DNA of 64,000 nucleotides from Hydrogenophaga sp. (GTDB lineage: Bacteria > Pseudomonadota > Gammaproteobacteria > Burkholderiales > Burkholderiaceae_C). The translations under genes were made by a program, and so were the position numbers. The stretch's first letter is position 1. Each line of letters opens with the position of its first letter. Below the pieces are notes generated by a model that worked only from the letters and a program-made list of their open reading frames with translations, was not told the origin of the DNA and made no database searches. The stretch lies in contig NZ_JAOASO010000144.1 in NCBI RefSeq assembly GCF_030158645.1, positions 8,815 through 72,814 of the forward strand, given 5' to 3'. This document shows, in pieces, positions 22,838 through 36,907 of this stretch.

Positions 22838-24130
22838 ATGAAAACCCAACGCGTCCTCACCGGCATCACCACCTCCGGCACACCCCACCTGGGCAACTAC
22901 GTGGGCGCCGTGCGCCCCACCGTGCGCGCCAGCCGCCTGGCCGAGGTCGAGAGCTTTTACTTCCTGGCCGACTACCACGCGCTCATCAAGGTGGGCGAGC
23001 CCGCGCGCGTGCAGCGCTCGACGCTGGAGATCGCCGCCACCTGGCTCGCCTGCGGGCTCGATCCCGACAAGGTCACCTTCTACCGCCAGTCCGACATTCC
23101 CGAGATCCCCGAACTCACCTGGTTTCTCACCTGTGTGACCGGCAAGGGCGTGCTCAACCGCGCGCACGCCTACAAAGCCTCGGTCGACAAGAACAACGCC
23201 GCCAACGAGGACCCGGACGCCGGCGTCACGGCGGGTCTCTTCATGTACCCGGTGCTGATGGCGGCCGACATCCTGATGTTCAACGCGCACCAAGTGCCGG
23301 TGGGGCGCGATCAGATCCAGCACATTGAAATGGCGCGCGACATCGCGGCCAGCTTCAACCACCTCTACGGCGAGCACTTCACGCTGCCCGAAGCCGCCAT
23401 TGAAGAGCACGTGGCCACGCTGCCCGGGCTCGATGGCCGCAAGATGAGCAAGAGCTACGACAACACCATCCCGTTGTTTGCGCCGCGCGATCAGTTGAAG
23501 AAGCTCATCATGGGCATCGTGACCGACTCGCGCGCACCGGGCGAGCCCAAGTCCACCGAAGGTTCGGCGCTGTTCCAGCTTTACCAGGCCTTTGCCTCGG
23601 CTGACGAGACGGCCGCGCTGGCCAGTGCCTATGCCGACGGTATTGCCTGGGGAGAAGCCAAGCAGGCGTTGTTCGAGCGGCTGGACCGGGAAATTGCGCC
23701 GCTGCGCATGGTTTACGACGAACTGATCCAGGAACCCGAACGGATCGAACGCACGCTCAAGGCCGGTGCTGAAAAGGCACGCGCCATCGCCACACCGTTC
23801 ACCGCAAGGCTGCGACACGCCGTCGGCTTGCGCCCCCTGCAGGTGGCCACAACGCCGGCTGCCACCAAAGGCAGCAAAACAGCGGCGCCCGCCTTCAAGC
23901 AGTACCGGGAACATGACGGTCTGTTCTATTTCAAACTGATGGGCGCACACGGCGAGTTGCTGCTGCAGAGCACCGGCTTCGCCGTGCCGCGCGATGCGGC
24001 GCAGGTCGTGACACGCCTGCAGCGCGAAGGCCCTGCGGCGCTGGAGGCACTCGCAACCCAGCTGACCATCCTCGGCGAGGCGGGTGACGTGCGGGCCGCA
24101 TTGCGCTGGTTCAGCGAACGTGACGCCTGA
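22838..24130 (+). CDS. trpS: Tryptophan--tRNA ligase with extra C-terminal domain
   Basis: TTSGTPHLGNY (HIGH-like), PVGRDQIQHIE, KMSKS. Confidence 0.95.
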   Translation: MKTQRVLTGITTSGTPHLGNYVGAVRPTVRASRLAEVESFYFLADYHALIKVGEPARVQRSTLEIAATWLACGLDPDKVTFYRQSDIPEIPELTWFLTCVTGKGVLNRAHAYKASVDKNNAANEDPDAGVTAGLFMYPVLMAADILMFNAHQVPVGRDQIQHIEMARDIAASFNHLYGEHFTLPEAAIEEHVATLPGLDGRKMSKSYDNTIPLFAPRDQLKKLIMGIVTDSRAPGEPKSTEGSALFQLYQAFASADETAALASAYADGIAWGEAKQALFERLDREIAPLRMVYDELIQEPERIERTLKAGAEKARAIATPFTARLRHAVGLRPLQVATTPAATKGSKTAAPAFKQYREHDGLFYFKLMGAHGELLLQSTGFAVPRDAAQVVTRLQREGPAALEALATQLTILGEAGDVRAALRWFSERDA

Positions 24131-24357: not shown

Positions 24358-24951
24358 ATGAGTATTTTTGTTATTGACGACCACCCGCTCATGCGTGAAG
24401 CCGTCGTCATGCTGCTTCGCCGCCTACGGGCCTCGACCCAGGTGATTGAACTCGAACGGCTGGCGTCGGTGAGCAAGGCCATTGCCGAACACGGCGAACC
24501 CGAACTGGTCTGTCTGGACCTCAAGTTGCCCGACACCAACGGCGTCTCCGGTGTGAGAGAAGTGCGCCAGATGTTGCCCGATACCTCGTTGATCGTGCTG
24601 TCCGCATCGCCGTCGTCCGACTACGAAGACCTGGCCCGCGAAGCCGGTGCCGACGCGTACGTGGAGAAATCGGCCGGCGCGGCGCAAATCGCCAAGGTGC
24701 TGCGCGAGTTCCTGACCGACGAAGTGGAAGACGAAAACGCACCCACCATTCCGGACAAACTCTCCAAGCGCCAGAAACAGCTGCTGGTCATGCTCGACCG
24801 CGGCCTGAGCAACCGCGACATCGCCGAACAACTGCAAATCAGCGAGCACACGGTCAAGGTGCACTTGTGGCGCCTGTTCCGCCGGCTCAACGTCAAGAGC
24901 CGCTCACAAGCCAGCCACCTCGCCCGCACCGCCGGCCTGCTGGACCTTTGA
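24358..24951 (+). CDS. NarL/LuxR-family response regulator
   Basis: VIDDHPLMR, LDLKLPD phospho-acceptor, LSKRQKQLL...GLSNRDIA...HTVKVH HTH. Confidence 0.92.
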   Translation: MSIFVIDDHPLMREAVVMLLRRLRASTQVIELERLASVSKAIAEHGEPELVCLDLKLPDTNGVSGVREVRQMLPDTSLIVLSASPSSDYEDLAREAGADAYVEKSAGAAQIAKVLREFLTDEVEDENAPTIPDKLSKRQKQLLVMLDRGLSNRDIAEQLQISEHTVKVHLWRLFRRLNVKSRSQASHLARTAGLLDL

Positions 24952-24977: not shown

Positions 24978-26435
24978 TCAGGCCGGACCGCGCACCACCG
25001 TGGGTTCGGGCAACCCGGTGCCCTCCTGCTGGGTGAACGCCGGCAACATCACCCGGAACACGCTGCCCCGATTCGCTTCCGAAGTCAGGGCCAGCTGATA
25101 GCCCATCAACGACGCCAGTTTCGACACGATCGTCAGGCCGAGTCCGAGGCTGTCCTCGGTGCCCTGGTGCTGGGACACCCGGAAGAACTCCTGGAAGATC
25201 GCCTGTTGGTGTTCGCGCGCGATGCCCACGCCGGTGTCCCAGACCTCGAACACCAGCATGTCTTCGCGCTGCCGCAAGGCGAGCAAGACGCCGCCCTGGT
25301 GGGTGTGCCGCAGCGCATTGGAGACCAGGTTGCCCAGAATGCGTCGCAACACCACCGGGTCCGACCACAGCGTGATGGGGCGGGTGTGGGTGCGAAGTCG
25401 CAGCGACTTCCCCACCGCCACCGGCTCGAACTGCAGCGACAGATCGGCAAACAGCTTGATCACGTCCACGTGCTGCAGACGCACCTTGTAATTGCCCGCG
25501 TCGATGCGCGTGAGATCGAACAACGAATCAAAGAGCTCGTTGATCGCCCGGGTGGACTGCAGGATGCGCGGCGCGATGTCGCGCGCCATTTCGGGCTCGG
25601 TGGCCAACCAGTCGGCGTACAGGCTCAACGCATGCACGGGCTGGCGGAGGTCGTGCGCTGCAGAGGCCAGAAAACGGTTTTTGGTGGCCACGGCACGCAA
25701 CGAGGCGCGGGTCTGCAAGGTCAGGGAATCGATCAGCTCCTGATTGGAAAACTGCAACTCAAAACTGGCATGGTGGACCCGGTGCATGCGTGTGCCGGTC
25801 ATGACGAGCAAACCCCAGAAAGCCACCAGGAGCGCCATCAGCACCAACCCGGTCTGCGTTGCACCGACAGGCTGAGAAGAGAAGATCGTGATACCCACCA
25901 GGCTCAGAAACACCGAGAGCATGAGGGCGTTGGCATAGGTGCGGTACACCGGCAGGTACGAGCTGAACGAAGTGAGCGTGAGCAGACCCTGCCCCAGCAC
26001 CACCAGCGCGCACACAAACTGGGTGGCGGCTGGCGCCTGCTGGTAGCTCAACAACACCGGTCCCCCCCATAGAAAGGCCACGGCGGCCCACGTCCAGTGG
26101 TAGCGGTTGATGAAGGTGATGCGTTGCGGCCCTTCCAGGCTGTCGTAACGCAGGCGGTAAATGCCGATCAGCCGATACCGGTACACCAGCATGGCCAGCA
26201 TGAGGACCGCCCAGACCAGCAGTCCCACCGTGTTGACCTCCCCCGCCATCATGTAGATGAGCAATGGCAGAGACAGCGTGGCCACGATCAGCGAAGGCCC
26301 CATGCCATCCATCAACACGCCAATGAGCTGCGAATTGACCCAGTGGTCACGCACCTCTGGCGATGCCGGCACGTGTTGGTAAGTCGCGGGTTGGGTGTCG
26401 ACGAGCATGGGCAGTGAAGAGCGGCGGTGAGGCAT
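24978..26435 (-). CDS. Membrane sensor histidine kinase (start could be 26408)
   Basis: Multiple TMs, H-box ASAAHDLRQPVHAL, NLVSNALRHT, DTGVGI, GLGLGL; convergent with the LuxR regulator. Confidence 0.92.
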   Translation of the reverse strand: MPHRRSSLPMLVDTQPATYQHVPASPEVRDHWVNSQLIGVLMDGMGPSLIVATLSLPLLIYMMAGEVNTVGLLVWAVLMLAMLVYRYRLIGIYRLRYDSLEGPQRITFINRYHWTWAAVAFLWGGPVLLSYQQAPAATQFVCALVVLGQGLLTLTSFSSYLPVYRTYANALMLSVFLSLVGITIFSSQPVGATQTGLVLMALLVAFWGLLVMTGTRMHRVHHASFELQFSNQELIDSLTLQTRASLRAVATKNRFLASAAHDLRQPVHALSLYADWLATEPEMARDIAPRILQSTRAINELFDSLFDLTRIDAGNYKVRLQHVDVIKLFADLSLQFEPVAVGKSLRLRTHTRPITLWSDPVVLRRILGNLVSNALRHTHQGGVLLALRQREDMLVFEVWDTGVGIAREHQQAIFQEFFRVSQHQGTEDSLGLGLTIVSKLASLMGYQLALTSEANRGSVFRVMLPAFTQQEGTGLPEPTVVRGPA

Positions 26436-26523: not shown

Positions 26524-26612
<89 letters not shown>

Positions 26613-26621
26613 CAAGTCCAG

Positions 26622-26648
26622 AAGCCCCTGTTACGCAGGGGCTTTTTT
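26622..26648 (+). terminator. Terminator after tRNA-Ser
   Basis: aagcccctg-ttacg-caggggctt followed by a T-run. Confidence 0.85.
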
Positions 26649-26948
26649 GTTGGCGGGGCGCCCGTGTTCACGCTGGGTTCGGGAGGCTTCGGTTTCTCGG
26701 TCCTCTCACGGAGTTGATGGTCGCGGAATTGCACGCGGCCAATGAAGCATCGCGGGACTCCAATCAGCCGACCTCATCGCCGTGGGCGGCGATCGTCTGA
26801 TGCCACCTCGACATCGCCCGACCCACCCAAGCAATAGCCCTACACCGTTGGTGGGATTGCCGCATTTCTTGTCGGAGGTTGCGGCCTGCCTCACAGTCAA
26901 GTCCGTGTAAAGCCTCGGTGTCTGTTTGAATCGTTACGACTTTTTCGC

Positions 26949-27485
26949 ATGAGCTCGACCCCCTTTCCCCCTCCGCTGCTCAGTTCGGCCGACATCCAGC
27001 TCGACAGAGACATCTTCCTGCGTGCGCTGCTTCGCGAGCTGTCCGGCACACTGGAAAATGTGGTCGGGCTTGACGACGCTTCTGGATTCATCAGCGTGGT
27101 GGGTCAGCGTGTGGGCGAGTGGATTGAAGCGGAATACCGCGCTGTGCTTGGCTCATCCCAAATGGACAGAGAGCAGGTCACGGCGGTGCTGATCGATCTC
27201 AAACGCCGCATCCACGGCGACTTCTATGTCATCGAGGCGGACGACACCAAAATCGTGCTGGGCAATCGTGCCTGCCCATTCGGCGACAAGGTGTTGGGGC
27301 GCTCCTCACTTTGCATGATGACGTCGAACGTCTTTGGGACGATCGCCGCGCAGAACCTCGGTCGAGCCAAGGTGGTGCTGCAAAAAACGATCGCCAAAGG
27401 CTCGACCACGTGCCAGGTGGTGCTCCACTTGAAGCCAGGTGCAGAAGCTGACGCTGAGGACGGGCGCGAATACTTTCGCATTTGA
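26949..27485 (+). CDS. Stand-alone methanogen output domain 1 (MetOD1)/V4R-like protein
   Basis: LDRDIFLRALLRELSGTLE, NRACPFG, LCMMTSNVFG, KTIAKG...C pattern recognised from memory of the family. Confidence 0.75.
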   Translation: MSSTPFPPPLLSSADIQLDRDIFLRALLRELSGTLENVVGLDDASGFISVVGQRVGEWIEAEYRAVLGSSQMDREQVTAVLIDLKRRIHGDFYVIEADDTKIVLGNRACPFGDKVLGRSSLCMMTSNVFGTIAAQNLGRAKVVLQKTIAKGSTTCQVVLHLKPGAEADAEDGREYFRI

Positions 27486-27498
27486 GGGCACATCTCCG

Positions 27499-29568
27499 AT
27501 GAGCTTCTCTCCTCAGCTCTGTGTGCAGATGTTCGAGGCGCATCCCGATGCGCACTGGCTGGTTGACGATCGTGGTGTGCTGAAACACGCCAACAAGGCC
27601 GCCCTTCGCCTGATGGGAAACCTGGCGACAGTGCCGGTTGGCGAAAAGATCTCGACCCTGGTCGTCGATGAGCCGACGCGCTGTGAAGAGCTCATTCGGC
27701 AGGGCTTGCGCAGCACGATTTCGACGCCGGCGCGATTGCGGTTGCGCACCGGCGACGCGGGTGAGGTCACCTGCCGGTGTGACATTGCGCTGCTGAGCCC
27801 GGCTTCTTGCGGGGAACCCGCCTTGCTGTGGTGCAGGCTGGTGGAACAAGGTTTGGGGAAAAACCAGTTCGCGGTTCTCAACCAGCAGATTCAAGCCTTG
27901 AAGCTCGAAATCGCAAGAAGACAGGCCGCAGAAGCGGACATGAGGCGGCAGAGCGAATGGCTGGAAACGGTGTTGCTGGGCATCGCCGAGGGCGTCATTG
28001 CCATCGACTTGGATGGCTGCGTGCTGTTCATGAACCAGGTGGCTGCCGAACTGACCGGCTGGCCCAGGGCCCTTTCAATGGGCCGATTGATCGGCGAGGT
28101 GATTCAACTGGTCGCGGTGGGGAGTTCAGACCGGAAGGAACAAGTTGCCGTCAACGTGCCACTCCCGGAAGGCCATCTCGACGGCAGGCGGCTGCAACTG
28201 GTGGGGCGGAGCGGGAAAGCCAGCATGGTGCAGGTGTCCACTTCAGCGCTGACCAGCGAGTCGGGCGCGAACCGGGGCACCGTGTTTGTTCTCCGCTCGG
28301 TTGAGGACGAACTGAAGGCTGAGCGTGAACAGCTTGCGCTCGAGCATCAGCTGCGCGAATCCCAGAAGATGGAGGCCTTGGGCACGATGGCCGGCGGCAT
28401 CGCGCACGATTTCAACAACATCGTCGCGGCCATTCTGGGCAATGTGGAGATGGCGCTCGAGGACACGCCGCCGGAGTCGGACTCCAGCGTGAGCCTCCTG
28501 GAGATTCGCAAATCGGGCCGGCGAGCACGTGACCTGGTGCAACAAATCCTGACCTTCAGCCGCCGGCAAGACAACACCCGAGCGCCCGTCGCCGTGGCAG
28601 CGCTGCTGCACGAGGCGCGACACATGCTCCGAACCGCTCTCCCGCCAGAAGCGGAGTTGGTGATTCACGCCGACGGAGAGCTTCCCAAGGTTTGGGGGAA
28701 CGCGACGCAAATCGAGCAAGTCTTCCTCAATTTGACGGGCAACGCGGCGCAAGCGTTGGAGGGGCGCTCGCTCGGCAAGGTTTGGGTGCACGTGAGCAGG
28801 TTCGAAGGCTTGCCACTGCCCTGCGACCCGGACGAAATCGACGTGATACCGACCGATCTGCAATCCTCGAACGTCAGCTTGTGCATCCGTGTGAGCGACA
28901 ACGGGGTCGGTATGACACCGCAGACCCTGTCCAGAATATTCGAGCCCTTCTTCACAACAAAAGCGGTGGGAAGTGGCACGGGGCTTGGGCTCGCGGTGGT
29001 GCACGGCATTCTGCGCGAGCACAACGCAGCGCTCAGGGTCAAGAGCACACAGGGCCAAGGCACCACGTTCTCGGTCTGGTTACCCGCCATGGACGAAGCC
29101 GATTCGTTGGATGCATCGGTGCCAGCGACACTGGCAGCAGCGGAGCCATTCAAGGCAAAGGTCGCCAACGCTTCGCAAATCCTGTACGTGGATGACGACG
29201 AAGCCATGGCGTTTCTGGTGCAACGCTTTCTCGAGCGCAACGGGTACCGGGTCACCACCTGCTTCAGCCCGGACGAAGCCCTGAACGTCCTGCGCTCGAA
29301 TGCGTTGGTCTTCACGTTGTGCATCACCGACTACAACATGCCCGGGATGTCAGGCCTTGGGCTTGCCAGAGCGATCAAATCGCTTCAGCCGACGCTCTCC
29401 GTTGCAATCGCCTCCGGCTACATCAGCGATGAACTTCGTGAGCTGGCACCGAAGGCGGGCGTGAGTGAACTGATCTACAAGCCCAACACCGTGGAAGAGC
29501 TGTGCCGCACGATTGAGCGCTTGATTGAGAGGGACACCGCGTGTGAAGCGAACGGATCGCACGAGTGA
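27499..29568 (+). CDS. Cytoplasmic PAS-PAS hybrid histidine kinase with receiver domain
   Basis: Two PAS-like regions, GGIAHDFNN, NLTGNA, DNGVGM, FEPFFTTK, GTGLGL; receiver VDDD...TDYNMP...YKP; no TM. Confidence 0.93.
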   Translation: MSFSPQLCVQMFEAHPDAHWLVDDRGVLKHANKAALRLMGNLATVPVGEKISTLVVDEPTRCEELIRQGLRSTISTPARLRLRTGDAGEVTCRCDIALLSPASCGEPALLWCRLVEQGLGKNQFAVLNQQIQALKLEIARRQAAEADMRRQSEWLETVLLGIAEGVIAIDLDGCVLFMNQVAAELTGWPRALSMGRLIGEVIQLVAVGSSDRKEQVAVNVPLPEGHLDGRRLQLVGRSGKASMVQVSTSALTSESGANRGTVFVLRSVEDELKAEREQLALEHQLRESQKMEALGTMAGGIAHDFNNIVAAILGNVEMALEDTPPESDSSVSLLEIRKSGRRARDLVQQILTFSRRQDNTRAPVAVAALLHEARHMLRTALPPEAELVIHADGELPKVWGNATQIEQVFLNLTGNAAQALEGRSLGKVWVHVSRFEGLPLPCDPDEIDVIPTDLQSSNVSLCIRVSDNGVGMTPQTLSRIFEPFFTTKAVGSGTGLGLAVVHGILREHNAALRVKSTQGQGTTFSVWLPAMDEADSLDASVPATLAAAEPFKAKVANASQILYVDDDEAMAFLVQRFLERNGYRVTTCFSPDEALNVLRSNALVFTLCITDYNMPGMSGLGLARAIKSLQPTLSVAIASGYISDELRELAPKAGVSELIYKPNTVEELCRTIERLIERDTACEANGSHE

Positions 29569-30118
29569 TGGAGTCGGCATGACAGGCCCCCTGCTGCCGC
29601 ACCCCTCAAAAGGCGGGATGCCGGTTTAGACCCCATGCCCGGGGACCGTCTGCGGCGGGGACTGTTTCCTTGAACCCAGCCTGGGCCGGCAGCACACGCC
29701 ACTCAGCGCTCCTCCACCTTGAGCGGTCGAGCGACAGCACGCACGCCGTCGCTGCCTCCACAAAACCAGCGGGTCCGGCCCCGATCGGCCATCCCTGGCG
29801 AAGGTCAGGAAGAAGCGCCCCATGATCCATGTCAAACCGGGCACCCAGGCTCGGGCCCACACTGAAGGCACGGACCGGCAGCCCTTCCTTGTTTGACCGA
29901 TTCTTGACGCCTTGAACCCGCGCCCTGGAGAAAGCGCCGCAAACCTGAGTGCGGTCCACCGCTCCCTGTGGCTCTCGGCGAAGGCGTCCAGACCATCCAT
30001 CGGCGCCGTGCCTTTGGGGCCATGAACAGAAGATGAACGCGCCGTTCAGCCTGCATGCACGCATGCATTTCCACAATGCAGGCATGTCACACGCTGACCC
30101 GCCTTGAAAGAACGTCCC

Positions 30119-30442
30119 ATGAAACACTCCCCCTGTCTTCGACATGGCTTGCTGGCGCTGTCACTCAGCTGGGCCGCGTTGCCAGCTCTGGCCGACGATG
30201 ACTGCGATGCGCCGCTGAATCGCTGGCAGTCACGCGACGCCGTGCATCAGATGGCCGCCGCCCAGGGCTGGCAGATCCAGCGGCTGAAGATCGACGACGG
30301 TTGCTACGAAGTGCGCGGCACCGATGCCCTGGGCCGCACCTTCAAGGCCCGGATTGATCCGGAGACCCTGAAGGTCTTGAAGCTCAAGCAGGAAGACCAC
30401 CAACGAGACCGTGATCGCGATCGCGATCGCAAGGCCGAATGA
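30119..30442 (+). CDS. Secreted PepSY-domain protein
   Basis: Signal peptide, DDDC...WQSRDAV...GWQIQRLKIDDGCYEV...IDPETL. Confidence 0.85.
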   Translation: MKHSPCLRHGLLALSLSWAALPALADDDCDAPLNRWQSRDAVHQMAAAQGWQIQRLKIDDGCYEVRGTDALGRTFKARIDPETLKVLKLKQEDHQRDRDRDRDRKAE

Positions 30443-30467
30443 CCACCACCCCCACCGGAGCACCACC

Positions 30468-30944
30468 ATGTCCAGACCCCTTTTGACGATTGTGGCCACC
30501 GCTTGCGCGCTGGCCCTGCCCGCCCTGGCACACAGCCGCCCCCTCACGCTGACCGCCCAGCTCAAGAACTACGGCGGCGACGGCGCCTACATCGCGGCCT
30601 ACCTGACCGATGCCAAGGGCGCCTATGTGCGCACGCTGTGGGTCGCTGGCGGCAAGGCCAAATACCACCAGCACTTGTCCGACTGGAACCGCCTCTCGGC
30701 CGGCGACACCAAGCGGCTGGACGGCGTCACCGGCGCCAGCGTGGGCGCGGGGCGAACACTCAAGGTCACCGCCGAGCTGGCCGACGCGCTGATCGACGCG
30801 GGCTATGAGATCCGCATTGACGCCGCGGCAGAAGACATGCGCGACAGCCCGTCGGAAGTCCGCATACCGCTGTCCACCGCCAACGTGGGCAAGCCACAGC
30901 CCGGCAAGCAGTACATCCAGTCCGCGACCTTCGAGCTCAAGTGA
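30468..30944 (+). CDS. Secreted DUF2271 protein with flavinylation motif
   Basis: Signal peptide, YGGDGAYIAAYL, DGVTGAS at 30720-30740. Confidence 0.85.
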   Translation: MSRPLLTIVATACALALPALAHSRPLTLTAQLKNYGGDGAYIAAYLTDAKGAYVRTLWVAGGKAKYHQHLSDWNRLSAGDTKRLDGVTGASVGAGRTLKVTAELADALIDAGYEIRIDAAAEDMRDSPSEVRIPLSTANVGKPQPGKQYIQSATFELK

Positions 30945-30954
30945 AGGCGCTCGC

Positions 30955-33162
30955 ATGAGCTGGAAAGCCCTCCACCGCTGGCTGGGCCTGACCGTGGGCA
31001 CCCTGGCCGTGGTGCTGGGTGTCAGCGGCGCCCTGCTGGCGATCGACCCGGTGCAACAGGCTTGGCAGGCACCCGCCGCACCGCGCGATCTGCCGGTGGC
31101 CACGCTGGTGGAGCGCGTCACACGCACCGTACCCGGTGCAGAAGAAATTCGTCGTCTGCCCTCGGGTGCCATCGTGGTGTTCAGCTTTGCGGGTGACCAG
31201 CCACAAGCGTCTTACGTGGATCCGGCCGCTGGCCGGGTGCTGGGTGCCTGGCAAGCCTCGGCGCTGCCGCGCTGGGTGAAAAACCTGCACCGCTCGCTGC
31301 TGCTGGGCGACGCCGGTCGTTGGGGTGCCGCGGGCATTGCGCTGACCATGGCCTTGCTGTGCGCTTCTGCCCTGATGCTGCTGCTGCGCCGCATGGGCGG
31401 CTGGCGGCGGCTGGCGGCGCGGGTGCGCGGCTCGCTGGCGCAGCGCATCCATGTGGTCGCGGGTCGCGTGGTGCTCGCCGTTTTGTGCCTGACGTCGCTC
31501 ACGGCGCTGACCATGAGCGCATCGACCCTGGGGCTGGTCGCGCTGGACACCCGGGCCGAACCCGACGTGCTTTCTCAAGTCACTGGTCAGACCGCGCTGC
31601 CCGCCGCCCAACTGGCCGCGCTGCAAGGTGTGGCCATGCCGGATCTGCGCAAGCTGAACATTCCGAGCGCCAGCGATCCGCAAGACACCTGGAAGGTCAC
31701 CACCGCCCAAGGTCAAGGCTGGATCGACCGGTATTCCGGCCAGATGCTGGCCTGGCAGGACGCCACCCTCGCGCAACGCACGTACGACCTCGCCGTGGTG
31801 CTGCACACGGGCGAAGCGGCCTGGCCCTGGGCCGTGGTGCTGGGGTGCGTGGGCGCCAGCGTGCTGCTGTTCTGGCTGTCGGGCGTTGTGATCTGGTGGC
31901 AGGCTCGCCGGCTGGCGCCCCACATCACGGGCAATGCCCCGCTGGCGCAGGCCGACGTGCTCATCTACGTGGCCAGCGAAGGCGGCAGCACCTGGGCCTT
32001 TGCCCAAACGCTGCAAGACGCGCTGAGCCAGGTCGGCCACCGCGTGCACACCAGCGCGCTGGAGAACTTTCAAACCACGGCCGCCACGCGGCAGGTGTTC
32101 GTGCTGGCCGCCACCTACGGCGAAGGCCAGGCCCCGGCGCACGCCAGCCATGCCCTGGCGCACATCGCCAGGCTCAAGGCTGGCGCCGTGCCGGTGACGG
32201 TGCTGGGCTTTGGCGACCGGCAGTTCCCCGCCTTCTGCGCGTTTGCCCAGGCGCTCGATGAGACGCTGCGCACCCAGGGATGGCCCGCGCTGCTGCCCCT
32301 CGAATGCATCCACCAGCAATCGGGCCAGCAGTTCGCCCGCTGGGGCATTGCACTGGCTCAAGCCATGGGTGAGCCCTTGGTGCTCGAGCATGTGCCGTGC
32401 ACGCCGCCCACCACACCGCTCACGCTCACAGCGCGCCGGGACTACAACGGTGGGGCCGGGCCGGCCACGGCGATCCTGCGATTTGCCTGGCCGGCACAGA
32501 CCCTGGGCGCACGCCTGCGCGGGCACGGCCTGGCGCGGTTTGCAGCGGGCGATCTCGTGGGCATCGTGCCGCCGGGTTCGGCCGTGCCGCGTTACTACTC
32601 GCTGGCCTCGGGCCAGGAAGACGGCTTCCTGGAAATCTGCGTGCGTCAGATGGCGGGCGGTCTGTGCTCCACGCATTTGCTGGGCCTCCAGCTGGGGGAC
32701 AGCACCACCGCCTTCATCCGGTCCAACCCGGGTTTTGCATTGCCGCGAACGCGGCGGCCGGTGCTGCTGATCGGGGCGGGCACCGGCGTGGCACCGTTGG
32801 CCGGCTTCATCCGCCGCAACGACCGACGCACACCCATGCACCTGTACTTTGGCGGGCGCGACCCGGCGCGGGACTTTTACTTTGGCCCCGACATCCAGCG
32901 CTGGCTCGTTGAAGGCCGCCTGGCCACGCTGCACACGGCGTTCTCGCGCGTGCCCGATGGCGGCGGCTACGTGCAGGACGCTCTGCGACGCGACGCCGAG
33001 CAACTGCGTGACTGGGCCTCACAGGGCGCGATCGTGCGCGTTTGCGGCGGCCGCGCCATGGCGCAGGGCGTGGCCGAGGCGCTGGACGCGGTGCTGGCGC
33101 CGCTGCAACTGAGCGTGGCCAAGCTCAAAGCCAGCGAGCGTTATGCCGAAGATGTCTTCTGA
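30955..33162 (+). CDS. PepSY-associated TM protein fused to flavodoxin and FAD/NAD(P)H-binding reductase domains
   Basis: LHRWLG/LHRSL/LHTG heme-type His helices; YVASEGGST flavodoxin; PRYYSLAS, GAGTGVAP, LYFGGR; CysJ-like end YAEDVF. Confidence 0.88.
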   Translation: MSWKALHRWLGLTVGTLAVVLGVSGALLAIDPVQQAWQAPAAPRDLPVATLVERVTRTVPGAEEIRRLPSGAIVVFSFAGDQPQASYVDPAAGRVLGAWQASALPRWVKNLHRSLLLGDAGRWGAAGIALTMALLCASALMLLLRRMGGWRRLAARVRGSLAQRIHVVAGRVVLAVLCLTSLTALTMSASTLGLVALDTRAEPDVLSQVTGQTALPAAQLAALQGVAMPDLRKLNIPSASDPQDTWKVTTAQGQGWIDRYSGQMLAWQDATLAQRTYDLAVVLHTGEAAWPWAVVLGCVGASVLLFWLSGVVIWWQARRLAPHITGNAPLAQADVLIYVASEGGSTWAFAQTLQDALSQVGHRVHTSALENFQTTAATRQVFVLAATYGEGQAPAHASHALAHIARLKAGAVPVTVLGFGDRQFPAFCAFAQALDETLRTQGWPALLPLECIHQQSGQQFARWGIALAQAMGEPLVLEHVPCTPPTTPLTLTARRDYNGGAGPATAILRFAWPAQTLGARLRGHGLARFAAGDLVGIVPPGSAVPRYYSLASGQEDGFLEICVRQMAGGLCSTHLLGLQLGDSTTAFIRSNPGFALPRTRRPVLLIGAGTGVAPLAGFIRRNDRRTPMHLYFGGRDPARDFYFGPDIQRWLVEGRLATLHTAFSRVPDGGGYVQDALRRDAEQLRDWASQGAIVRVCGGRAMAQGVAEALDAVLAPLQLSVAKLKASERYAEDVF

Positions 33163-34126
33163 AACAGCGGTGACTGGCCAGCGCACCACCCTGCACGGTC
33201 CGGCCATGGGCACGCGTTGGTCGGCCACGATCGACGCTGACCTCTCCCTGGACCGGGAAGCCTTGCGCCAGGACCTCGCCGCTGCGGTGGAGCGGGTGGA
33301 CGGGCAGATGTCCCCCTGGAAGCCGAACAGCGACCTCCTGCGCCTGAACCGCGCGCCTGTGGACGCCTGGGTGGACCTGCCCGCCGACCTGCTGGCGGTG
33401 CTGGACTGTGCGCTCGATGTCCAGCGCCGGAGCGCGGGTGCCTTCGACCCGTGCGTGGGGGACCTGGTCGATGCCTGGGGCTTCGGCGCGGTGCGCGACA
33501 CACCCGACGCGGCGGCCATCACCGCCACGCGCCAGACCAGACCACGCACGGTGCACGAAGGCATCGAGTTGGAACGGCCCGCGCGCCGTGCCCGCAAGCG
33601 CGCGCCCTTGCAAGTCGACCTGTGCGGCATTGCCAAGGGCTACGCGGTGGACCGCATGGTGGCTGTGCTGCAACAGCACGGTGTGCGGCACGCACTGGCC
33701 GCGTTGGACGGGGAGCTGCGCACCGTGGGTGCGCAGGCCAACGGCGTGCCCTGGGCGGTGGCGCTGGAGCAACCCGAGGAAGGCCACCGTGCGGTGCGTG
33801 GTGTCATCGAGCTGGAGGACCTGGCCTTGGCCACCTCGGGCGACTACCGGCGCTGTCTGCAAGTGGGCGATGCGCGCCTGGCCCACACCATGGACCCGCG
33901 CCGCCGCGCGCCGGTGAACAACGCCGTGGCGTCGGTCACGGTGCTGGCGCGCACCGGCATGCAAGCAGACGCCTGGGCCACGGCCTTGCTGGTGGCGGGC
34001 CCCGACGAAGGTCTGGCCATGGCGCAGCGCATGGGGCTGGAGGTGCTGTTCCTGCTTCGCCGAGCCGAGGGCCTGGTGGAGCTGGGGCTGGGTCGGTTTG
34101 GCCGTTCCTCAACCCCGTCACGTTGA
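33143..34126 (+). CDS. apbE: FAD:protein FMN transferase (ApbE family), no signal peptide
   Basis: MGTRWS, FDPCVGDLVDAWGFG, DLCGIAKGYAVD, ATSGDYR, ADAWATAL. Confidence 0.9.
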   Translation: MPKMSSETAVTGQRTTLHGPAMGTRWSATIDADLSLDREALRQDLAAAVERVDGQMSPWKPNSDLLRLNRAPVDAWVDLPADLLAVLDCALDVQRRSAGAFDPCVGDLVDAWGFGAVRDTPDAAAITATRQTRPRTVHEGIELERPARRARKRAPLQVDLCGIAKGYAVDRMVAVLQQHGVRHALAALDGELRTVGAQANGVPWAVALEQPEEGHRAVRGVIELEDLALATSGDYRRCLQVGDARLAHTMDPRRRAPVNNAVASVTVLARTGMQADAWATALLVAGPDEGLAMAQRMGLEVLFLLRRAEGLVELGLGRFGRSSTPSR

Positions 34127-36760
34127 CGGCTTTCGACGGGCCCACTTGATGCCTTCAAACCACCACACGCTCAGCAAACCCAAGCCGCAGGCAGCGGCCA
34201 GCTCGTGGACAGGCAGCGGCGCGAAGCGCAGCACCCCCACCGCCCAGGGAACGTAGAGCGCCGCCAGCAACAAACCACTGGCCAGACCCAGCACAGCCCA
34301 CAGCGTGCGGTTGGGCGTGCGCAGCGTCGCCCACAGCGAGCGGGTGCTCGAACGGTTGGAGAGGATCAGGGCGAGGTTGGCCACGACCAGGGTGGCAAAC
34401 GCAAAAGCACGGGCCTCGGGCTCGGGGATGCGCGCACTGGCCCATGCAAATGCGGCCATGACGACGGCCAGCACACCCAACCCCTGAACCAGCGCGAGGA
34501 TGAGGGTGGTGCCGCCAAACAGGGGGGCGCTCGCATCCCGCGGCGGGCGCTGCATCACGTCGTCTTCTGCCGGCTCGTTCTCGAAGGCGACCGAGCAGGC
34601 CGGATCGATGATGAGTTCGAGCAGGGCGATGTGCATCGGGTACAGCAAGGCCGGCCAACCCAGCAACACCGGCAGCATCGCCATGCCGGCGATGGGCACG
34701 TGCACCGCCAGGATGTAGGACATGGCCTTGCGCAGGTTGTCGAAAATCCGGCGACCCAGCCGAACAGCGGCGACGAGGGACGCGAAGTTGTCGTCGATCA
34801 GCACCAGCGAAGCCGACTCGCGGGCCACGTCGGTGCCGCGCTGGCCCATGGCCACCCCCACATGGGCTGCGCGCAACGCCGGGGCGTCGTTCACGCCGTC
34901 GCCCGTCATCGCGACAATCTCGCCTCGGGCCTTCAGTGCCTGCACGATGCGCAGCTTCTGCTCGGGCGCGATGCGGGCGCAAACGCTGACGGTGGCCAGG
35001 CGCTCGCGCAGTGCCCCGTCGCCCAGTCCCGCGATCTCGTCGCCGGTCAGCACATCCCCGTCGCGCACGGCCAGTCCGGCCTGACGCGCGATCACCCGCG
35101 CCGTGGCCGGGTAATCGCCGGTGATCATCACCACCCGGATGCCAGCGGCGCGGCACTCGGCCACGGCGGCGGGCACCTCGGCGCGCACCGGATCGGCCAG
35201 ACCGAGCAAACCGACAAACTCGACGTCGAATCCGTGTTCTTCCGCTGGCCAGTCCTGGCCTGCAAACGATCCGCGCGCCACGGCCAGCACCCGCAGGCCC
35301 TGGGCCGCCAGCAACTCCACTGCGCCGCCGATGCGGGCTCTCTGCGCATCGTCGAGGTGGCACAGGTCCATCACCGCCTCCGGTGCACCCTTGGCGGCGA
35401 CGGTCTGGAGGCCATCACCCGGCGCGGCCCACACGTGCGACATGGCCCGCAGCGCCGGGCTGAGCGCGTAGGTGCGCACCAGGCGCCAGTCGTGATGCAG
35501 GTGTTCGGTGTCCGTGAGAAAGCGCTCCCCCAGCTGATGGAAAGCTTTCTCCATCGGGTCGAAGGGATCGACCACGCTGGCCAGGATCGCGAGTTCCAAC
35601 AGCGGGTGGAAGGCCTCGGGCAACCGGCTGTCGGCCAGCGTGTCCAGCGCCAGGCTTTCGGTCAGACCGAGACCACCGGCGACCAGGTGCGTCACCGTCA
35701 TGCGGTTCTCCGTCAGCGTTCCCGTCTTGTCGGTGCACAGCACCGTGGTGGCGCCCAGCGTCTCGATGGCGTTGATGCGCCGGGTGAGCACGCCCTCCCG
35801 GGACAACCGGCGTGCACCCAGCGCCGGAAACACCGTCAGCACCACCGGGTATTCCTCGGGCAGCAAGGCCATGGCCAGGGCAATGCCCGCCAGCAGCGCC
35901 TGCAGCCAGTCGCCCTGGATCACGCCGTGCGCCAGGACCAGCAGCAGGCTGAGCACCAGCGCCAGCAAGGCGAGGTGGCGCACCAGCCGGGCCGTCTGTT
36001 TCTGCAGTGGCGATCGCTCACTCGCCACGGCACCGAGCGATGCACCGATGCGGCCGATCTCGCTGCGCTCGCCGGTGGCGGTGACCCAGGCGAGCGCATG
36101 GCCCTGCACGATCAGCGTGCCCGCGTACACCCAGGGCAGATCGTCACCGCCCGGCACCTGGCGCGTGGCGCCGGACGCCTTCCCCGATGCAGCGCGTTCA
36201 TCGGCCCGGGCCACCCGCTTGCCCACCGGAACGGCCTCGCCGGTCAGCAGCGATTCATCGGCCCTCACGCCGTCGGCAGACACCAGCAGCGCATCGGCCG
36301 GAACCCGGTCGCCTTCGCTCAGCTTGAGCAGGTCGCCGCGCACCACGTCTCGCCCGGCGATGCGCAAGGGCCGACCGTCGCGCAGGACCAGGGCGCGCGG
36401 GCTCGTGAGATCGCGCAGCGCTTCGATGGCGCGCTCGGTCTTGCCCTCCTGGTACAGCGTGAGCCCCACGGTGACCACCACGAACCCGAAGAGCGTGAGT
36501 CCCTCCCGCAGGTCACCGAAGGCCAAGTACAGGGTGCCCGCTGCGAGCAGCAACAGGAACATCGGCTCGCGCACGGTGGCCCAGACCATCGACAGCAGGT
36601 TACGCCGCTGACCACCGGGCAAGGCATTGGGACCCTCTTGCGCCAGGCGTTGCGCTGCCTGGAATGTGGAAAGACCCCGGTCAAGATCCACCGCCGGCAC
36701 GGGCGTTTCAATGGGGGGGCCGGGTGGGACGTCGGCCCGGGCGGCTTGGCTGGTCGGCAT
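34118..36760 (-). CDS. Cation-transporting P-type ATPase
   Basis: DKTGT, TGEA, PEEYP, KGAPE, MITGD, GDGVNDAPAL. Confidence 0.93.
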   Translation of the reverse strand: MPTSQAARADVPPGPPIETPVPAVDLDRGLSTFQAAQRLAQEGPNALPGGQRRNLLSMVWATVREPMFLLLLAAGTLYLAFGDLREGLTLFGFVVVTVGLTLYQEGKTERAIEALRDLTSPRALVLRDGRPLRIAGRDVVRGDLLKLSEGDRVPADALLVSADGVRADESLLTGEAVPVGKRVARADERAASGKASGATRQVPGGDDLPWVYAGTLIVQGHALAWVTATGERSEIGRIGASLGAVASERSPLQKQTARLVRHLALLALVLSLLLVLAHGVIQGDWLQALLAGIALAMALLPEEYPVVLTVFPALGARRLSREGVLTRRINAIETLGATTVLCTDKTGTLTENRMTVTHLVAGGLGLTESLALDTLADSRLPEAFHPLLELAILASVVDPFDPMEKAFHQLGERFLTDTEHLHHDWRLVRTYALSPALRAMSHVWAAPGDGLQTVAAKGAPEAVMDLCHLDDAQRARIGGAVELLAAQGLRVLAVARGSFAGQDWPAEEHGFDVEFVGLLGLADPVRAEVPAAVAECRAAGIRVVMITGDYPATARVIARQAGLAVRDGDVLTGDEIAGLGDGALRERLATVSVCARIAPEQKLRIVQALKARGEIVAMTGDGVNDAPALRAAHVGVAMGQRGTDVARESASLVLIDDNFASLVAAVRLGRRIFDNLRKAMSYILAVHVPIAGMAMLPVLLGWPALLYPMHIALLELIIDPACSVAFENEPAEDDVMQRPPRDASAPLFGGTTLILALVQGLGVLAVVMAAFAWASARIPEPEARAFAFATLVVANLALILSNRSSTRSLWATLRTPNRTLWAVLGLASGLLLAALYVPWAVGVLRFAPLPVHELAAACGLGLLSVWWFEGIKWARRKPST

Positions 36761-36836
36761 GTCCCGCCTTTCTGGCTGAGCGTTCTGCTCGGGTGGGTTC
36801 CTCCGCCGCAGTGTGTTCGCGGCTGAAGGCGCTTCC

Positions 36837-36850
36837 TGGAGCATGCTCAA
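36837..36850 (-). promoter_or_regulatory. FNR-type box upstream of the P-type ATPase
   Basis: TTGAG-CATG-CTCCA on minus strand; CACACT -10 at 36815-36810. Confidence 0.5.
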
Positions 36851-36907
36851 TGCCACCGGGAGACTTCGCATTCTGCGGCCACGCGCGGGCAATGAACCGC
36901 ATCTTTG

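Follow-up and report, generated by a model that had tools for sequence, protein, structure and literature searches.

A MetOD1 protein as probable stand-alone sensor of its neighbouring PAS1 kinase in Hydrogenophaga sp.

Introduction

What is the role of a small protein with only three cysteines that is encoded directly in front of a predicted hybrid histidine kinase? This question is raised by two adjacent genes at positions 26949-29568 of a 64,000-nucleotide stretch of the Hydrogenophaga sp. contig NZ_JAOASO010000144.1 (the window, meaning this whole stretch). The first gene encodes a 178-residue protein of the family MetOD1 (Pfam PF18546), the second a kinase with two PAS domains and a C-terminal receiver (REC). 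A preliminary description, made from the sequence alone, had proposed a two-protein sensor in which the MetOD1 protein is either the input or a partner of the kinase. This proposal is supported by the fold of the small protein, its conserved cysteines, the linkage of the two genes and the fusion of MetOD1 to the N-terminus of kinases elsewhere.

The small three-cysteine protein probably serves as a free-standing sensor, hitherto uncharacterised, by which the adjacent kinase is controlled. Fold, cysteine conservation, gene pairing, a specific partner domain, natural fusions and intact catalytic residues were all observed directly. Based on these sequences and structure models, we consider it fairly probable that MetOD1 acts as a trans-acting sensor subunit, which would dock on the first PAS domain of the kinase (PAS1), control its activity and sense by means of a cysteine-bound metal centre. 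While MetOD1 is already known as a Pfam family, its bacterial predominance, its location at the input end and the obligatory pairing with a PAS1 kinase appear to be undescribed in the literature searched, where no description of a bacterial MetOD1 member was found.

Results

The small protein belongs to MetOD1, a family of the Bet3/V4R/H-NOX superfold

The open reading frame (ORF) of the small protein spans positions 26949-27485 of the forward strand, with the TGA stop codon at 27483-27485. Its product matched PF18546 with an E-value of 1.2e-19 and 71.2 bits (cut-off 23.8 bits) over profile positions 2-141 of 142. An AlphaFold2 model based on an alignment of 59 diverse relatives (predicted local distance difference test score, pLDDT, 95.9; predicted template modelling score, pTM, 0.87) comprises three long N-terminal helices and a four- or five-stranded sheet that is packed on a long helix. 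In Foldseek searches against the PDB, this model matched Bet3/TRAPPC3 (template modelling score on the query, TMq, 0.57-0.69) and the V4R phenol-sensor domains of PoxR, MopR and DmpR (TMq about 0.6). A match to the H-NOX protein of K. algicida (6bde/6bdd) ranked below Bet3 and V4R and is at the level of the superfamily only (TMq 0.49-0.50, E about 1e-3).

At E<=10, the family profile found no PDB sequence, and the Pfam families V4R, HNOB and ATC_hydrolase did not match the window protein. Since the fold matches are thus obtained without a sequence relative in the PDB and without a match to these Pfam families, MetOD1 is, as far as the structure model goes, a separate family within the Bet3/V4R/H-NOX superfold. 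This placement agrees with the study of archaeal MetOD1 response regulators by Galperin et al. (2018; PMC5847659), and the V4R/MetOD1 likeness suspected in the preliminary description was confirmed by both the profile and the fold matches.

Members of the family carry diverging names. NCBI records list them as "methanogen output domain 1-containing protein" and some as "transcriptional regulator", and the JGI label of many members reads "predicted ArsR family transcriptional regulator". These names would fit a role as a regulator of the ArsR family, which we regard as extremely improbable: no helix-turn-helix (HTH) or winged-helix family was detected in the protein, the Bet3/V4R/H-NOX fold was predicted with confidence over its whole length, and where other members possess a DNA-binding domain, it is a separate module fused to MetOD1. 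The ArsR label was therefore rejected.

MetOD1 is mainly bacterial and carries three near-invariant cysteines

A word-indexed search yielded 6604 relatives at E<=0.001, and an exhaustive search of representatives at 50% identity yielded 754 clusters. In a genome scan, MetOD1 was found in Cyanobacteria (Nostoc, Calothrix, Arthrospira), Planctomycetota, Acidobacteriota, Gemmatimonadota, Myxococcota (Sorangium), Verrucomicrobiota, Chloroflexota and alpha-, beta- and gamma-Proteobacteria, to which plasmid records add Streptomyces and Priestia. Judged from these sequences, the family is large, mostly bacterial and present in about ten phyla. Across phyla its members are 60-72% identical to the window protein, whereas the partner kinases are only 21-30% identical. 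The small protein is conserved like ribosomal proteins despite its patchy distribution.

The window protein contains exactly three cysteines: C109 (in RACPF, codon 27273-27275), C122 (in SLCMM, codon 27312-27314) and C155 (in TTCQV, codon 27411-27413). Their conservation was determined in 150 diverse MetOD1 representatives at 50% identity and amounts to 95-99%, in line with the conservation that the preliminary description had anticipated. C109 is conserved in 132 of 139, C122 in 130 of 132 and C155 in 110 of 111 of the sequences compared at the respective position, and the triad is invariant among the close relatives of the window protein. Both exceptions at C122 are histidines, a replacement that is expected for a metal ligand. 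P110, F111, T125, G130, A149 and G151 are near-invariant as well.

The MetOD1 gene is closely coupled to a soluble hybrid kinase

The MetOD1 stop codon is separated from the kinase gene by a spacer of 13 nt (27486-27498), and a GAGGG motif resembling a Shine-Dalgarno ribosome-binding site overlaps this stop. The kinase reading frame begins with an ATG at 27499 and encodes 689 residues; the ORF listing also contains an upstream GTG at 27439 as an alternative start. In the nearest homologue (locus L002), the kinase likewise starts 13 nt past the MetOD1 stop, and because of this identical spacing 27499 is the likely start codon.

Residues 1-149 of the kinase (27499-27945) form the N-terminal PAS1 module, which consists of a divergent PAS fold, which Pfam recognised only weakly (residues 16-94), followed by a long conserved helix. 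It is followed by a canonical second PAS domain (residues 157-266, 27967-28296; Pfam PAS, E 1.1e-12), the kinase core with HisKA (residues 294-358) and HATPase_c (residues 401-530; together 28378-29088) and a C-terminal receiver (residues 561-672, 29179-29514; Pfam Response_reg, E 1.5e-19), all encoded on the forward strand. The catalytic residues are intact, namely the phospho-acceptor H303 (HDFNN), the acidic pocket D565-D567, D611 (TDYNMP) and K661, and H303 is conserved in at least 90% of the partner kinases. Given the HisKA histidine, the HATPase_c domain and the receiver with its aspartate pocket, the protein is by sequence a hybrid histidine kinase. No credible transmembrane helix was detected in the kinase: the highest hydropathy over 19 residues (1.88) corresponds to a strand of the second PAS domain that contains three acidic residues. 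The small three-cysteine protein ending 13 bp before a kinase of the order PAS-PAS-HisKA-HATPase-REC without transmembrane segment was accordingly as the preliminary description had stated. The spacing and its conservation suggest that the two genes are co-transcribed and form a close-coupled, self-contained cassette.

The pairing with PAS1 kinases is conserved

The recurrence of the gene pair was analysed in 80 related genome loci, which contained 67 complete downstream proteins. In most loci, a long ORF on the same strand has its start at about -41 to +20 nt relative to the end of the MetOD1 gene, and ATGA overlaps are common. HisKA together with HATPase_c was found in 60/67 downstream proteins and HisKA_3 in two more, while 38/67 contained a receiver. 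Of 66 complete partner kinases searched separately with a receiver profile, 39 are hybrid kinases, 6 are followed immediately by a gene for a separate REC protein and 21 have neither. When all ORFs within 5 kb on either side of the pair were clustered all against all, only the two genes themselves were conserved, and the next "families" were their antisense shadows; no regulator, histidine phosphotransfer (Hpt) or metabolic gene was recurrent around the pair. In the genome from which the window originates, Hpt domains occur only within large CheA-like or hybrid proteins.

To characterise the N-terminus of the partner kinases, a profile was derived from the window kinase and its relatives, using their first ~140 residues. 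In 65/67 partner kinases this PAS1 profile matched at the N-terminus, scoring a median of 149 bits, whereas the other PAS domains of these proteins scored a median of 11 bits. In the helix of the module F124, L127, N128, L134, E137 and an RR pair are conserved. An AlphaFold2 model of PAS1 (pLDDT 86.8) shows PAS topology followed by a helix at residues 120-148, and in Foldseek it best matched domains of the heme-PAS, LOV, PpsR and FixL types together with their C-terminal helices. Thus the recurrent MetOD1-kinase linkage which the preliminary description called for was found, and it extends to one particular domain of the kinase.

A sample of 300 genomes of the class served to examine the specificity of this association further. 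Of these genomes, 25 contain MetOD1, with 18 free-standing copies and about 8 inside frames of 530-590 residues. All PAS1 matches of at least 70 bits (11/11) lie immediately 3' of a MetOD1 gene, and a PAS1 adjoins 16 of the 18 free-standing MetOD1 genes. Moreover, pairwise distances of MetOD1 and PAS1 are correlated across 63 loci (Mantel r 0.66, p<=0.001; 0/999 permutations above 0.16), which shows a shared history to which the species phylogeny contributes. From these sequence comparisons PAS1 emerges as the hallmark of MetOD1-partner kinases and as the candidate site for docking and signal transmission.

Fusions place MetOD1 at the input end of kinases

Multidomain MetOD1 proteins account for 17 of the best 150 representatives. 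In all kinase fusions (10/10), MetOD1 is located at the extreme N-terminus, in the architectures MetOD1-HisKA-HATPase (P0179, P0229, P0233 and P0237), MetOD1-PAS-HisKA-HATPase, MetOD1-PAS-GAF-kinase and MetOD1-PAS-HisKA-HATPase-REC. The other fusions are MetOD1-GerE, HTH_3-MetOD1 and HATPase_c_2-MetOD1, the last with or without GerE. The cysteine triad and its flanking motifs are kept in all fused forms. The N-terminal kinase fusions favour an input over an output function of MetOD1, and by sequence the positions correspond to those of ligand-binding input domains in kinases and one-component regulators. In seven proteins (P0235, P0256, P0265, P0268, P0216, P0222 and P0270), MetOD1 was found fused to an RsbW-like HATPase_c_2 domain of the anti-sigma kinase type, a LuxR-type GerE HTH or an XRE-type HTH. 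These combinations imply that histidine kinases are only one of several output types served by the MetOD1 sensor module.

An output function is suggested by the archaeal members. Archaeal MetOD1 response regulators such as Methanosarcina acetivorans MA2445 share PF18546 and the same three conserved cysteines with the bacterial proteins, but their MetOD1 domain follows a receiver, was named an output domain and was described as methanogen-specific (PMC5847659). By contrast, the bacterial MetOD1 proteins are free, far more numerous and paired with kinases or fused N-terminally to them; stand-alone MetOD1 is also included in the architecture table of Galperin et al. (PMC5847659). If MetOD1 were the output of the pathway, the free protein would be bound and controlled by a phosphorylated receiver, either that of the hybrid kinase or that of a REC protein encoded separately, and would in turn act on an effector or perform a reaction. 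This would be in agreement with the REC-MetOD1 and REC-PAS-MetOD1 architectures of methanogens (PMC5847659), with the in vitro phosphorylation of MA2445 by a hybrid kinase (bioRxiv 10.1101/2024.10.04.616672), with receivers that are fused in 39/66 partner kinases and encoded next door in 6 more, and with the absence of any other output domain linked to the pair. However, 21/66 kinases have neither a fused nor an adjacent receiver while PAS1 is present in 65/67, so that the invariant partner of MetOD1 is PAS1 and not REC. In addition, MetOD1 precedes the kinase core in every kinase fusion, and MetOD1-GerE and HTH_3-MetOD1 look like one-component regulators with MetOD1 as input. We therefore regard the output function as improbable.

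A minimal version of the system is present on plasmid pDE of Cereibacter sphaeroides 2.4.1 (L101, 116300-122414), where MetOD1, a PAS1-HisKA_2-HATPase kinase of 344 residues and a REC-only gene form a tight triad. The MetOD1 orthologue of this strain is WP_011331451, and PAS1 is the sole input (non-catalytic) domain of its kinase. RSP_4193, which is probably the C. sphaeroides MetOD1 gene as judged from gene and accession order with the locus-tag mapping unverified, was assigned to the regulon of the heat-shock sigma factor RpoHI together with RSP_4198 and RSP_4199 (Dufour et al.; PMC3441632). The triad lies directly downstream of a biliverdin-producing heme oxygenase gene and a gene for a 931-residue EAL protein, a neighbourhood that was not recurrent within 5 kb of the pair in the other loci. 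This EAL protein is presumably the bacteriophytochrome BphG1.

The system resembles, but differs from, known trans-acting sensors

H-NOX proteins regulate adjacent kinases in trans (PMC4436077), and the H-NOX/HnoK pairs of Shewanella oneidensis, Vibrio cholerae and Silicibacter are the closest parallel. As in the MetOD1 pair, a free protein of ~180 residues and of the same superfamily is encoded beside a soluble histidine kinase, by analogy with which MetOD1 would act in trans as well. The two systems further share a three-cysteine site in the C-terminal subdomain (with the metal putative in MetOD1), and in both the kinase is frequently of the hybrid type or passes its signal to a protein that consists of a receiver only. 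In contrast to H-NOX, MetOD1 is devoid of the heme machinery, as it contains neither a conserved histidine nor a YxSxR motif and does not match HNOB; the only histidines of the window protein, H89 and H160, are both variable. The cysteine pattern also differs, sequence conservation is far higher in MetOD1, and its partner carries a dedicated N-terminal PAS module, which HnoK-type kinases are not known to need.

A second analogous system is NosP/NahK, in which a free cofactor-binding sensor (the cofactor being putative in MetOD1) is co-transcribed with a hybrid kinase and modulates its autophosphorylation. NosP has the unrelated FIST fold, and the window kinase matched the "near_NosP" kinase model only weakly (80 bits, cut-off 400).

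The V4R domains of MopR, PoxR and DmpR (PDB 5KBE, 5FRU and 6IY8) share with MetOD1 the fold at a TMq of ~0.6, a hairpin of the form G-D-x-x-C-R-[IV]-[IV] and the input position. They differ in being fused to an AAA+ sigma-54 activator, whereas MetOD1 is free and lacks a V4R Pfam match.

The three cysteines may form a metal centre

To compare the cysteine site with that of the phenol sensors, the MetOD1 profile was aligned with hhalign to a MopR/PoxR/DmpR alignment, whose sequences had been retrieved by way of a V4R protein of a related genome. Only the N-terminal part matched at first, and the relaxed local mode gave a full-length alignment of low confidence (E 0.0045, probability 8%; E 0.0035-0.0045 and probability 8-9% over both modes). 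Within this overall weak alignment, the MetOD1 segment IA-x-G-D-x-x-C155-R/Q-V-V corresponds locally, and there convincingly, to A-Q-G-D-E-H-C189-R-I-I of MopR. The zinc ligands of MopR we take to be C155, E178, C181 and C189, a numbering that agrees with the chain numbering of the retrieved MopR sequence. E178 and C181 are not conserved in MetOD1, where C109 of the CPF motif completes the triad instead. Depending on the alignment, which is weak here, either C109 or C122 falls near the start of the helix that bears C155 in MopR. W134 of the aromatic pocket of MopR has no evident MetOD1 counterpart, again within a weak alignment. The CPF motif resembles the Cys-Pro heme-regulatory motif; this was considered, and nothing beyond the motif itself stood behind it.

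A zinc site of three cysteines plus histidine or glutamine is present in a subset of H-NOX proteins, and the zinc-cysteine site of V. cholerae H-NOX serves as a redox switch that works without heme and inhibits HnoK in a reversible manner (PMC7108781). This site would be homologous to the cysteine site of MetOD1 and V4R. Another precedent is provided by D27, an H-NOX/TRAPP-like protein that holds a [4Fe-4S] cluster by cysteines (PMC13254051). According to its published description, on which alone the comparison is based, the cluster lies in a cavity and is bound by cysteines located in a loop, at the start of a helix and in a strand, and the spacing is similar in outline (C199-x11-C211-x3-C215-x26-C242 in D27 and C109-x12-C122-x32-C155 in MetOD1). 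D27 differs by having four ligating cysteines and by being a plant and cyanobacterial enzyme to which no sequence relationship of MetOD1 was detected. By analogy with these proteins, our guess for the Cys3 centre would rank a redox- or ligand-reactive zinc-thiolate first, an iron-sulfur cluster second and a merely structural zinc last.

The D27 precedent also bears on the idea that MetOD1 is an enzyme for C-S bond chemistry, similar to ATC hydrolase, or a small-molecule carrier, merely co-transcribed with the kinase that regulates it. Galperin et al. noted a similarity to the ATC hydrolase domain and proposed a related activity (PMC5847659), and D27, a [4Fe-4S] carotenoid isomerase, shows that the H-NOX/TRAPP-like fold with a cysteine-held cluster can be catalytic (PMC13254051). 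Nevertheless we consider this very unlikely, as ATC_hydrolase, V4R and HNOB all failed to match, metabolic genes are not conserved around the pair and the module is found within kinases and transcription factors, which is typical of sensor domains but not of enzymes.

More weight has to be given to a ligand-independent function, although it still appears unlikely to us. In this case MetOD1 would be an accessory or inhibitory subunit with a structural zinc. It would serve constitutively as an anti-kinase, a scaffold or a stabilising factor, comparable to FixT, Sda or KipI, and sensing would be left to the PAS domains of the kinase. Indeed, the homologous cysteine site of MopR/PoxR-type V4R domains is a structural zinc site by the ligand pocket and C155 aligns with C189 of MopR, sensing could be performed by the kinase's own two PAS domains, and the pairing fits an accessory subunit equally well as a sensor. 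On the other hand, the fusions place MetOD1 in a sensor position, sometimes as the sole domain besides the kinase core (the four MetOD1-HisKA-HATPase proteins), the identity of 60-70% across phyla exceeds what a scaffold usually needs, and the conserved cofactor-type residues of PAS1 are limited to N32, R93 and R113.

The cassette behaves as a mobile unit and probably has its own transcription unit

The cassette was found in 7 of 61 Hydrogenophaga species, and roughly 8-11% of the genomes sampled from the class and the genus contain the module. In three congeners (L098, L099 and L100), only the two genes match the window while the flanks differ. A tRNA-Val adjoins the cassette in two of these three, and a tRNA-Ser is located just upstream in the window. 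The G+C content drops to 0.61-0.63 between 24 and 30 kb of the window, compared to 0.66-0.71 around it, and copies of the cassette also occur on conjugative plasmids. The patchy distribution in the genus, the differing flanks, the G+C dip and the plasmid copies indicate that the pair is a mobile two-gene unit.

Upstream of the pair, the tRNA-Ser(CGA) gene (26524-26611) is followed on the forward strand by a terminator hairpin with a T-run (26620-26650; -21.5 kcal/mol, z -4.07), which is the upstream limit of the transcription unit of the cassette. The non-coding region of ~300 nt between the hairpin and the MetOD1 ORF (26651-26948, forward strand) presumably carries the promoter of the cassette, and no sigma-70-like match was obtained in it.

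The preliminary description had further stated that no response regulator is nearby. In the window itself this does not apply, since a NarL/LuxR-type response regulator (24358-24951, forward strand) is encoded ~2 kb upstream; it is, however, not a neighbour of the pair in the 80 related loci. Convergent with it and 26 nt apart lies the gene of a membrane HisKA kinase of 485 residues (24978-26435, reverse strand), and although not co-transcribed the two are probably a cognate pair. The N-terminal half of this kinase (~230 residues) is a multi-pass membrane region without a Pfam family match. As regulator and membrane kinase do not adjoin the module in any of the 80 loci, they were rejected as parts of it; in the window they are separated from the pair by the tRNA gene and the terminator.

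Further genes of the window were noted in passing. Positions 30104-34126 contain, on one strand, genes for a PepSY_2 protein, a DUF2271 periplasmic protein, a 735-residue PepSY_TM-flavodoxin-NAD-binding reductase fusion and an ApbE flavin transferase, a cluster that looks like a periplasm-facing flavin-dependent reductase system. It is followed on the opposite strand by a P-type cation ATPase gene (34118-36892). The tryptophanyl-tRNA synthetase gene at ~22840-24130 (forward strand) encodes a C-terminal extension of ~90 residues (containing DGLFYFKLMGAHGELLLQSTGF), which by eye resembles a YegP/DUF1508 repeat; this is unconfirmed, as Pfam at E<=1e-5 gave the synthetase core only.

Discussion

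The results point to a sensor that is encoded apart from the kinase it controls. In the proposed mechanism, the free MetOD1 protein would bind to the N-terminal module of the downstream kinase, consisting of PAS1 and its helix, and via this helix would raise or lower the autophosphorylation of H303. The phosphoryl group would then be transferred from H303 to D611 in the receiver of the same kinase. Sensing most likely relies on a metal bound by the three invariant cysteines, in a position that corresponds to the cysteine-ligated zinc of V4R sensor domains and of some H-NOX proteins. Such a Cys3 centre might act as a thiol or redox switch or offer a small reactive ligand a place to bind.

Several observations weigh against this model. 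In archaea the domain follows the receiver (REC-MetOD1), which is formally an output position (PMC5847659). The MetOD1 profile aligns to V4R only weakly overall, a known zinc ligand is matched with confidence by just one cysteine of the triad, and the MetOD1 position equivalent to C181 of MopR is threonine or alanine instead of cysteine. The Mantel correlation is confounded by shared phylogeny, and neither a dedicated Hpt protein nor a DNA-binding regulator was found linked to the pair in the loci analysed. Finally, the docking on PAS1 is deduced from co-occurrence, and the fused kinases lack a PAS1-like domain (12-19 bits). The latter is also consistent with PAS1 being a socket that would take the place of the covalent link between MetOD1 and the kinase.

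A more far-reaching possibility, to which we give only tentative credence, is that MetOD1 represents a very widespread and so far undescribed class of bacterial heme-less accessory sensors of the H-NOX/V4R fold. Their Cys3 centre would have an open coordination site, as Zn(Cys)3 or as a [4Fe-4S] or [2Fe-2S] cluster whose set of cysteines is incomplete, with D27 as the related case within the fold. It would be a direct target of an oxidant, NO, O2 or a soft metal, and the protein would report to a PAS socket that is found only on the partner kinases. If this holds true, "methanogen output domain" would be a misnomer for a mainly bacterial input module.

Free trans-acting sensors of kinases such as H-NOX and NosP are few, and each of them opened a field, for example that of NO and biofilm signalling. 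The present analysis suggests that an "archaeal output domain" should be re-labelled as a predominantly bacterial input module, and the specific partner PAS domain could serve to predict which sensor is wired to which kinase. The module is also present in model organisms, namely C. sphaeroides 2.4.1, Nostoc, Arthrospira and Sorangium.

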